The position numbers and the translations under genes were made by a program. This document shows, one piece after another, positions 1 to 985 of a stretch of 985 bases of DNA (its first letter is position 1; each line of letters opens with the position of its first letter). Under the pieces are notes generated by a model. The model was not told where the DNA came from and ran no database searches. It worked only from the letters and a program-made list of their open reading frames with translations. The stretch is from NCBI RefSeq assembly GCF_003334385.1, contig NZ_QOWN01000138.1. One strand, 5' to 3'. Source of the DNA: Escherichia coli (GTDB lineage: Bacteria; Pseudomonadota; Gammaproteobacteria; Enterobacterales; Enterobacteriaceae).

Positions 1-985
1 GCTGATTGCCGCCAGTGTTCTCCTTGTGTGGATGTTCAGCGCCTTCCATTTCCTCCGGATCATCTTCCTGAACTTCAACCTGATACTCTTCATCGAATGT
101 TTCTTGGTATGTTGCGTCGCCCATCACCGCGCCACAATCAGGGCAGTTGCCGCCGCCGGTCTGACCGCAGGCGGTGCAGGCTTTTTCCACTTCCTGTTGC
201 GCCACTGGTTCAGGCTGTTTCGTTTCTGGCTCGTTTTGTAACGCATTTGGACTGTTTTGTTCCGCTTTTTGGTAGTTCCGTTCCGATTCATGCTGGTTCT
301 GGTTCACAGAATCGCGGGTCTGGATCCCCTTAACCCATTTCGGATCATTCGGGTCACTAATCCCTTCAACAAATTCACCACGTGATGCAGCAAGCAACTT
401 ATCGGCGTCAGGCTGGCTGATATTGGCTGCCTGCATAATTTTGTTTACTTCGTCAGCGGTAACTTTTATCGGCTCTGGTTGTTCTGAATCTTCAGCGGTA
501 TCTACATTTTGCGGTAAGCCCGTGTATGTGCCATTTTTTCGGGCAAAATATTCTTCTTTTGTGATTTCAGTGGCGCCAGCAGCCAGTGCCTTATCCAGAC
601 CAGAAAGTTTGTTTGCGCGACCGTATTTTTCTCCGTCCTTATCTGCGAAGAGGAAATAGAACGGCCCCTCACGCTCTACAGATGGTTCAGCTTCCGGCGC
701 GGTTTCATTTTTTGGGATATCAGATACCTCAGTTTCTACTGCATCAGTTTGTGTTTCTGATGACTGGAGAACATCAACAGTGCCCAGGTCTGTTTCTTCA
801 TTCTCAAACACGCCCTTTGTCGTCAGGTATTCGCAGATATATTTGTTCAGTGCTACGGGATCTTTGTGAATGTCGATCGGACGCTCACGGACAAGGCCAA
901 AAATAGTTTGGCGGTCGTAGCGAAGGGCATCAGGCTGTTTGCGCATTGATGCCGAGATACGCTTCCAGTCTTCGCGGTCGTTGTC
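1..985 (-). CDS. recE: Internal fragment, partial at both ends, of a RecE-like exodeoxyribonuclease VIII family protein (Rac-type prophage recombination exonuclease); non-catalytic central region. Codons run from 985 down to 2.
   Basis: Seen in sequence: reverse-complement frame starting at 985 is open for all 328 codons; translation has protein-like composition with acidic linker segments and a CxxC...CxxC motif. From memory, not a search: the stretches [29 protein letters not shown], ACxACGQTGGxNCPDCGAVMGDATYQETFDEE and DPEEMEGAEHPH closely match the central region of E. coli K-12 Rac prophage RecE, which lies just upstream of its C-terminal nuclease domain. The start codon must lie beyond position 985 and the stop beyond position 1. 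Confidence 0.8.
2..121 (-). other. Acidic low-complexity tract (GDATYQETFDEEYQVEVQEDDPEEMEGAEHPHKENTGGNQ), probably a disordered linker before the downstream domain
   Basis: Seen in sequence: about 14 D/E and one K in 40 residues, with no hydrophobic core pattern. This corresponds to the segment that, as I recall, immediately precedes the RecE catalytic domain. Confidence 0.5.
134..178 (-). other. Four-cysteine CxxC-x7-CxxC motif (CTACGQTGGGNCPDC), candidate zinc-ribbon or zinc-knuckle
   Basis: Seen in sequence: residues 270, 273, 281 and 284 of the window translation are Cys (tgc at 176-178 and tgt at 134-136 on the reverse strand bracket the motif), with a Gly-rich intervening loop. The spacing fits small Cys4 zinc-binding knuckles. 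Metal binding is inferred, not shown. Confidence 0.5.

Follow-up and report, generated by a model that had tools for sequence, protein, structure and literature searches.

The DNA analysed here is a stretch of 985 nucleotides (nt) from Escherichia coli (contig NZ_QOWN01000138.1), referred to below as the window. Its minus strand reads through as one open frame (328 codons, no stops) and encodes amino acids (aa) 282-609 of an 823-aa prophage protein annotated as "exonuclease". Comparison with recE, the exonuclease gene of the Rac prophage in E. coli K-12, indicates that the window is very probably a true intragenic recombination mosaic within a large family of lambdoid-prophage exonuclease genes. 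The window allele consists of a YdfE-type N-terminus and a DEDDh nuclease. Only the central block is common to this allele and K-12 recE.

The window was 99.9% identical to the gene for WP_000048369.1 in E. coli E2865. In this strain the prophage adjoins rspB, the same chromosomal site at which the cryptic prophage Qin is found in K-12. The Qin pseudogene ydfE of K-12 (MG1655) corresponds to the first 767 nt (aa 1-255) of the exonuclease gene at 99.7% identity. It is interrupted by IS2E after codon ~255, and as a result K-12 is without the entire region covered by the window. Judged by its sequence, the window gene is the intact form of ydfE. The gene order of the host prophage is dicF-dicB-ydfD-exo-xis-int, which is an early-left operon of the Qin/Tritos lambdoid type. 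A recT neighbour was absent, and xis and int followed directly after the gene, in E2865, O157 strain 3384, AR_0058, NCCP13963, Z1322, MINF_7C and Tritos. In E2865, xisR, located just downstream of the exonuclease gene, is split by an IS66-family insertion (ISCro1).

The gene is widespread. A match to the window was obtained in 4734 of 5426 complete E. coli genomes, with at least 80% of the window covered in 3603 of them and at least 99% identity in 1573 complete-genome records. Each E. coli genome carried it in a median of 2 places (maximum 9). The isolated phages Tritos, HannyBb and PhiR42_1 have the gene at 99.4-99.7% identity over the window (Tritos 99.4%), and PHROG 2082 matches the 823-aa protein over its full length. 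Database entries for the protein include very many partial sequences of less than 300 aa, mostly from contigs of less than 1 kb. Assemblies apparently often break in this gene, as it is a prophage repeat present in several copies. Plus-strand open reading frames of 33-106 aa were dismissed, being unsupported and overlapping the real minus-strand frame. An Rfam scan of both strands of the window gave a chance match only (17.6 bits against a gathering score of 42.7 bits).

Identity to K-12 RecE along the window

The window protein was compared with K-12 RecE segment by segment. In the 30-aa motif block (window 311-400), 29 of 30 residues were identical, with a single change from E to D. The 41 residues following this block (window 188-310) had 15 identities, and here K-12 RecE shows a 14-aa deletion relative to the window. 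Identity rose again to 50 of 62 in the final residues, which comprise a zinc-ribbon-like knuckle and an acidic tail (aa 548-609), so that the entire downstream part reached 94 of 133. Among the 195 upstream residues only 31 were identical (16%, 40 gapped).

The transition between these parts is sharp. A megablast match to K-12 recE was confined to window 1-404, and in a local nucleotide alignment the similarity began at window ~400-409. In sliding windows of 20 codons, identity to K-12 increased across aa 460-480 from 10-15% (aa) and 27-35% (nt) to 95% (aa) and 92% (nt). At the other end, the shared block runs ~14 aa past the end of the window to the start of the nuclease domain. Beyond aa ~623-626, at the start of the DEDDh and PD-(D/E)XK domains, similarity to K-12 RecE is lost. 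The shared central block is ~150 aa long and has 85% nt identity to K-12 recE (RecE aa ~455-588). A more distant relationship extends beyond it. Alignment of aa 262-622 with RecE aa 278-588 by blastp was far beyond chance (E = 4.7e-66), and aa 246-623 matched positions 271-600 of the NCBIfam exonuclease VIII profile (E = 1.5e-83). The region at window 812-985 had 20-35% aa identity to K-12 RecE and to the allele of AR_0151.

The first-pass annotation had assigned a RecE-like block, K196-D225, to window 311-400, and these coordinates are exact. It had described the block and the sequence downstream of it as matching RecE almost residue for residue. This is true of the block and roughly of the last 62 residues, but not of the stretch between them. 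The poor match of the ~190 upstream residues was borne out. The upstream segment had also been called unfamiliar, which agrees with its overall identity; however, it is not wholly foreign, as window 812-985 shows remote homology to RecE aa ~298-355. A recombination junction had been suspected near position 400, and the breakpoint relative to K-12 recE lies within ~10 nt of it. The alignment and sliding-window identity plot proposed at that time gave the abrupt step described above and not a uniform identity.

Synonymous sites were evaluated against K-12 recE by the Nei-Gojobori method (NG86), separately for each segment. The shared block (aa 477-623) had a proportion of synonymous differences (pS) of 0.27 and a synonymous divergence (dS) of 0.33. 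In the flanks (aa 1-476 and 640-823), pS was 0.76-0.85 and thus saturated. Within the block, the motif segment had a dS of 0.38 and a nonsynonymous divergence (dN) of 0.01. The Q/E-rich linker inside the block was nearly neutral, with dN and dS about equal at 0.28, and could still be aligned. Outside the block, pS relative to K-12 was 0.76 at the end of the helical domain (window 812-985), again saturated, and 0.85 in the helix preceding the block (window 401-469), which had a dS of only 0.08 relative to AR_0151. Since the near-neutral linker of the block still aligns and the flanks do not, the flanks are not merely diverged but have a different and much older origin. They also differ in their domains, with a Rv2179c-like DEDDh nuclease in the window protein and a DUF3799 PD-(D/E)XK nuclease of another fold in K-12 RecE. 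The sequence on either side of the block is non-orthologous to K-12 recE or anciently diverged from it. On its upstream side the shared block is bounded by the junction at ~400; its downstream limit, at aa ~623, falls a little beyond the window.

Nuclease class and reassortment of modules

A Pfam scan of the full 823-aa protein gave a sole match, Rv2179c-like (PF16473), at aa 642-813 (E = 5e-67, model positions 2-177 of 177); there was no domain match anywhere within the part encoded by the window. The DEDDh motifs (DxE...NxxxD...HxxxxD) are readable as DLETMG, NGANFDN and HNALDDA. The C-terminal domain, encoded by the same gene outside the window, is a predicted DEDDh (DnaQ-like, Rv2179c-like) 3'-5' exonuclease. 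In contrast, K-12 RecE, whose 5'-3' nuclease domain occupies aa ~606-866, contains DUF3799 (PF12684), a PD-(D/E)XK domain, at aa 615-850 and Exonuc_VIII (PF06630) at aa 2-178, and the Pfam scan of the window gene detected neither of them. The NCBIfam equivalog for exodeoxyribonuclease VIII, NF007259, scored 281 bits with the full protein, 256 bits with the window part and 1830 bits with K-12 RecE. With an equivalog cutoff of 1269 bits, the window protein falls short by a factor of ~4.5.

The possibility that the gene is a recE allele was ruled out by the DEDDh C-terminus, the failure with NF007259 and the absence of both Exonuc_VIII and recT. A Rac-like host element was likewise ruled out by the Qin/Tritos-type gene order without recT. 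The RecE-like trait that the gene does have is a central region homologous to RecE aa ~271-600. The genes of Tritos (TRITO_27) and PhiR42_1 are annotated as 'exonuclease VIII, ds DNA exonuclease' or 'exodeoxyribonuclease VIII'. These labels are misleading because the RecE nuclease domain is missing and the NCBIfam cutoff is not reached, and they probably represent a systematic mis-annotation.

Other alleles carry these modules in different combinations. In AR_0151, a RecE-type N-terminus gives way at window ~468 to a block and a DEDDh domain of the window type. From this position to the gene end it is 96-100% identical to the window allele (dS 0-0.15), whereas its N-terminus is unalignable with that allele. 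In NCCP13963, a K-12-type N-terminus and pre-block helix are joined to a DEDDh domain. The K-12-RecE-like N-termini of these two alleles were assigned by alignment and not by Pfam scan. We then surveyed architectures in IMG/VR loci and in representative proteins at 50% identity. Among 80 IMG/VR loci, ~44 combined a YdfE-type N-terminus with DEDDh and ~24 a RecE-type N-terminus with DEDDh, main and truncated classes taken together. The window protein was matched by 128 representative clusters, 47 of them full-length. Pfam scans of 46 of these 47 yielded Exonuc_VIII in 24, DUF3799 in 14 and a Rv2179c-like domain in 7. YdfE-type modules occurred with a RecE nuclease in P0151, P0190 and P0199 (N_B and ins_B) and in P0240 (ins_B only). 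By these domain assignments, both N-terminal types combine with both nuclease types. One of the 46 scanned representatives also carried a RecT domain (E = 2e-42), which could reflect either a fusion of exonuclease and RecT or a gene call that reads through.

A finer mosaic was seen as well. In the zinc ribbon and tail segment, K-12 RecE was 89% identical to the window allele, compared with 77% for the DEDDh allele AR0058. The K-12 block is therefore nearer to the window block than that of AR0058 is, and the history of the block conflicts with the nuclease type. Alleles with 98-100% identity elsewhere show clustered differences at window ~696-790 and ~481-525. Of the differences in the allele of O157 strain 3384, 39 fell in window 696-790 and 63 in the remaining 890 nt. 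Z1322 was identical to the window allele in the first cassette, located in linker 1 (Table 1), but had 20 differences in window 481-525. Clustering was evaluated by a maximum chi-square test (0 of 200 permutations), and different alleles were identical in different segments.

The initial proposal of module exchange among Rac-like recE alleles thus stands as far as the exchange is concerned. It has to be revised as to the gene, which is not recE, and as to the prophage, which is of the Qin/Tritos type. The junction at ~400 is real but one of several, alongside that of AR_0151 at ~468, the two cassettes and the edge at aa ~623.

Explanations for the discontinuity

Co-resident or co-infecting lambdoid phages have recombined and thereby reassorted modules. 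The exonuclease genes of this family, which belong to the early-left region of lambdoid prophages with its recombination module, encode proteins built like beads on a string. An N-terminal Exonuc_VIII/RecE-type or YdfE-type module is followed by a helical middle domain and then by acidic linkers predicted to be disordered, to which some members add a small alpha/beta domain. The central bead of ~150 aa comprises the conserved short motif, the Q/E-rich linker, a four-cysteine (Cys4) knuckle and the acidic tail. The C-terminal bead is a nuclease, either of the RecE PD-(D/E)XK 5'-3' type or of the DEDDh 3'-5' type. We propose that junctions would persist where they meet or adjoin a disordered linker between domains, since hybrids would keep their function there, and that the conserved block would supply the homology through which different genes recombine. 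The predicted structure would fit this proposal. In the AlphaFold2 model the hypervariable cassettes coincide with predicted disordered linkers (model of moderate quality). The junction at ~468 coincides with the 3' edge of linker 2, which is predicted to be disordered, and that at ~400-409 lies between two short helices. No Chi sites and no meaningful repeats were detected at the junctions, and no sequence signal accounts for their positions.

Several points weigh against this explanation or limit it. The motif is under strong purifying selection, and 29 identical residues out of 30 are by themselves no proof of recombination; what carries the argument is the pattern at synonymous sites, together with the neutral linker around the motif. 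NG86 was applied to short segments of 19-147 codons, and the unalignable flanks had to be force-aligned for it. The structural model was derived from a shallow alignment of 45 sequences and has a predicted template modelling score (pTM) of 0.40. No crossover event was directly observed. With a dS of ~0.33, the exchange between the K-12 and window lineages is by this estimate not recent.

Alternatively, no recombination may have occurred, and the genes would be uniformly ancient homologues in which the block is a motif held by purifying selection. The element LAAxRGExVEGISDPxDPKW is indeed the most conserved one over all distant relatives, with a dN of 0.01, and the helical domain upstream is truly, if remotely, homologous to RecE, so that an old and diverged origin would fit part of the gene. 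However, selection at the protein level does not preserve synonymous sites, and pS is 0.27 in the block compared with ~0.76-0.85 in the flanks. The disordered linker within the block is neutral and still aligns. Moreover, the C-terminal nucleases differ in fold, both N-terminal types occur with both C-terminal types, and the relationships of the block conflict with nuclease type. We therefore regard such rate heterogeneity as very unlikely.

Even less probable is that the junction at ~400 is the scar of one ancestral gene fusion or domain accretion, inherited vertically with no ongoing exchange. A multi-domain structure with long disordered linkers, as predicted by AlphaFold2, is typical of fused proteins, and the dS between the K-12 and window blocks is not that of a recent event. 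Against a single scar, the alleles use several junctions (~468, ~400-409, aa ~623 and those of the linker cassettes), and AR_0151 has a nearly identical tract beside an unalignable N-terminus. Several junctions together with near-identical tracts require repeated and relatively recent exchange. Finally, a uniformly recE-like window, whose apparent break would stem from an incomplete reference for RecE (a caveat raised by the first-pass annotation itself) or from a chimeric assembly, might be suggested by the records that call the gene 'exonuclease VIII', but is refuted. Direct comparison with K-12 RecE shows the discontinuity. Thousands of complete genomes have the gene in this full-length form, among them the 1573 records with at least 99% identity, as do Tritos and HannyBb, which are isolated phages. 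The labels, in turn, are supported neither by the NCBIfam score nor by the Pfam domains.

Intragenic recombination remains the preferred explanation. As for the block, our preferred view is that it would act as a flexible adaptor or tether with a short binding motif and a metal knuckle, and also as a homology patch. In a stronger form, the block would be a portable adaptor and the N-terminal two-thirds of RecE a scaffold, and the two together would bring either nuclease, without the help of RecT, to a partner or substrate common to both. This stronger form is possible but doubtful.

Parts of the window and comparison with known systems

The segments of the window are listed in Table 1. The AlphaFold2 model covered aa 240-640 and had a mean predicted local distance difference test score (pLDDT) of 70. 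In this model linker 1, linker 2 and the region after the motif all had a pLDDT below 50.

Table 1. Segments of the window and of the encoded protein, with coordinates and model confidence
Feature	Protein (aa)	Window	Strand	Remarks
Internal part of the intact ydfE exonuclease gene	282-609 of 823	1..985	-	single open frame
C-terminal 58 residues of folded helical domain	domain ~240-339	812..985	-	pLDDT 93-98
Linker 1, acidic, predicted disordered, hypervariable cassette	~340-384	677..811	-	pLDDT 43-48
Small beta-beta-alpha-beta-alpha domain, EREGPFYFLF...EEYFARKNG	~385-440	509..676	-	pLDDT 90-96
Linker 2, predicted disordered, second hypervariable cassette	~440-454	470..508	-	pLDDT ~42
Pre-block helix IKVTADEVNKIMQAANISQPDAD	454-476	401..469	-	common to AR_0151-type alleles
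Two short helices and conserved motif	~458-499	~332-457	-	pLDDT 73-86
Conserved motif block	477-506	311..400	-	29/30 vs K-12 RecE; pLDDT 73-86
Q/E/N-rich variable linker	507-547	188..310	-	dN 0.28 ~ dS 0.28; low pLDDT
Cys4 knuckle and acidic tail region	503-640	1-322 and beyond	-	pLDDT low
Four-cysteine zinc-ribbon-like knuckle CTACGQTGGGNCPDC	551-565	134..178	-	read from sequence
Acidic tail of shared block GAVMGDATYQETFDEEYQVEVQEDDPEEMEGAEHPHKENTGGNQ	566-609	2..133	-	dS 0.36 vs K-12

The small alpha/beta domain is missing from K-12 RecE, AR_0151 and NCCP13963, whose alignment rows are gapped here. It is present, as GPFYF...GRANK...EI(T/S)xEE(Y/H), in distant relatives that are without the shared block, and it gave no Pfam match and no significant fold match in the Protein Data Bank (PDB). 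A Foldseek search of the whole model against the PDB yielded nothing significant either (best E = 0.47), and a PDB sequence search with the protein gave no match. In place of IKVTADEVNKIMQAANISQPDAD, K-12 RecE and NCCP13963 have an unrelated helix. The part EVNKIMQAAN of the pre-block helix (window 440-467) weakly resembles the start of the block (window 380-409), and in one relative KVTVEDVNKVMAAARGEF continues straight into the conserved motif. Speculatively, the window allele may contain a partial duplication from an out-of-register exchange.

Both the 45- and the 46-sequence alignment have LAAxRGExVEGISDPxDPKW as their consensus, and it is the sole element kept across all distant relatives. 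In many of these, ISDPNDPKW is followed by SNEVEKTE, GNGxFSIEGLM or VADGVFDAS in place of the Cys4 knuckle, which suggests a string of interchangeable short linear motifs. The knuckle has the counterpart CNACGQTGGDNCPDC in K-12 RecE. Metal binding by it is putative, being read from the cysteine pattern; the Pfam match of RecE to Zn_ribbon_3 is weak (E 4.8). In the MINF_7C gene, a 21-nt tandem duplication places QNSPNAL twice in the Q/N-rich linker (aa ~524-537), and the protein has 830 aa instead of 823. The shared block is also matched at 78% nt identity by the Actinobacillus phage vB_Apl-pPE4 (PP818812.1), which is an unexpected host.

Of the known systems, RecE of Rac shares with the window protein the central ~150-aa block, including motif, Cys4 knuckle and acidic tail, and the remote upstream helical domain. 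Both genes occupy the same early-left slot upstream of xis and int, with recT and a few small genes in between in Rac, and the proteins are similarly large (823 aa for the window protein, 866 aa for RecE). The window protein differs in having no PD-(D/E)XK domain, no Exonuc_VIII and no recT partner. Instead it has a DEDDh nuclease, whose predicted polarity is opposite, and an extra small alpha/beta domain. Genes labelled exonuclease VIII or RecE that encode a DEDDh nuclease and have no annealase would lead to wrong inferences of RecET-type recombination, and the gene is very common in E. coli. The occurrence of one non-catalytic scaffold and central block with two unrelated nucleases suggests that the scaffold has a function of its own. 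This bears on the unexplained N-terminal two-thirds of RecE. According to a 2023 review, the function of the RecE N-terminal domain is not known, and RecE relatives differ in carrying that domain (PMC11611040). If the block were indeed an adaptor, this would provide a handle on the role of the non-catalytic part of RecE and would help to explain why full-length RecE behaves unlike its nuclease domain alone.

The K-12 pseudogene ydfE is near-identical to the window gene over its 5' 767 nt, and its neighbours dicB and ydfD and its rspB-adjacent site are as in E2865. It differs by the IS2E interruption and the missing window region. Another close counterpart is the Tritos class of recombination (Rec) modules; phage Tritos has the window gene itself in the same dicF-dicB-ydfD-exo-xis-int context. 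This class is described as having a nuclease and no single-strand annealing protein (SAP), single-stranded DNA-binding protein (SSB) or anti-RecBCD function, and DnaQ-like 3'-5' nucleases are reported within lambdoid Rec modules (PMC12315714, Genome Res 2025). The main text of that paper leaves the nuclease type of Tritos unstated, does not describe the RecE mosaic and places domain-shuffling analysis beyond its scope. The literature searched, with incomplete coverage, gave no account of this specific RecE/YdfE-type mosaic and nothing on a relation of ydfE to RecE.

Genomes of lambdoid phages are mosaics in which modules are exchanged and junctions lie at gene or domain boundaries, as worked out by Hendrix, Casjens and colleagues. 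The window is an instance of this well-known mosaicism and as such expected rather than surprising. It shares the abrupt transitions in identity and the reassortment of modules, and its junctions may likewise lie at domain boundaries or linkers. It differs in that the exchange takes place within one gene, where nucleases that differ in fold and in predicted polarity alternate around a retained and largely disordered block.

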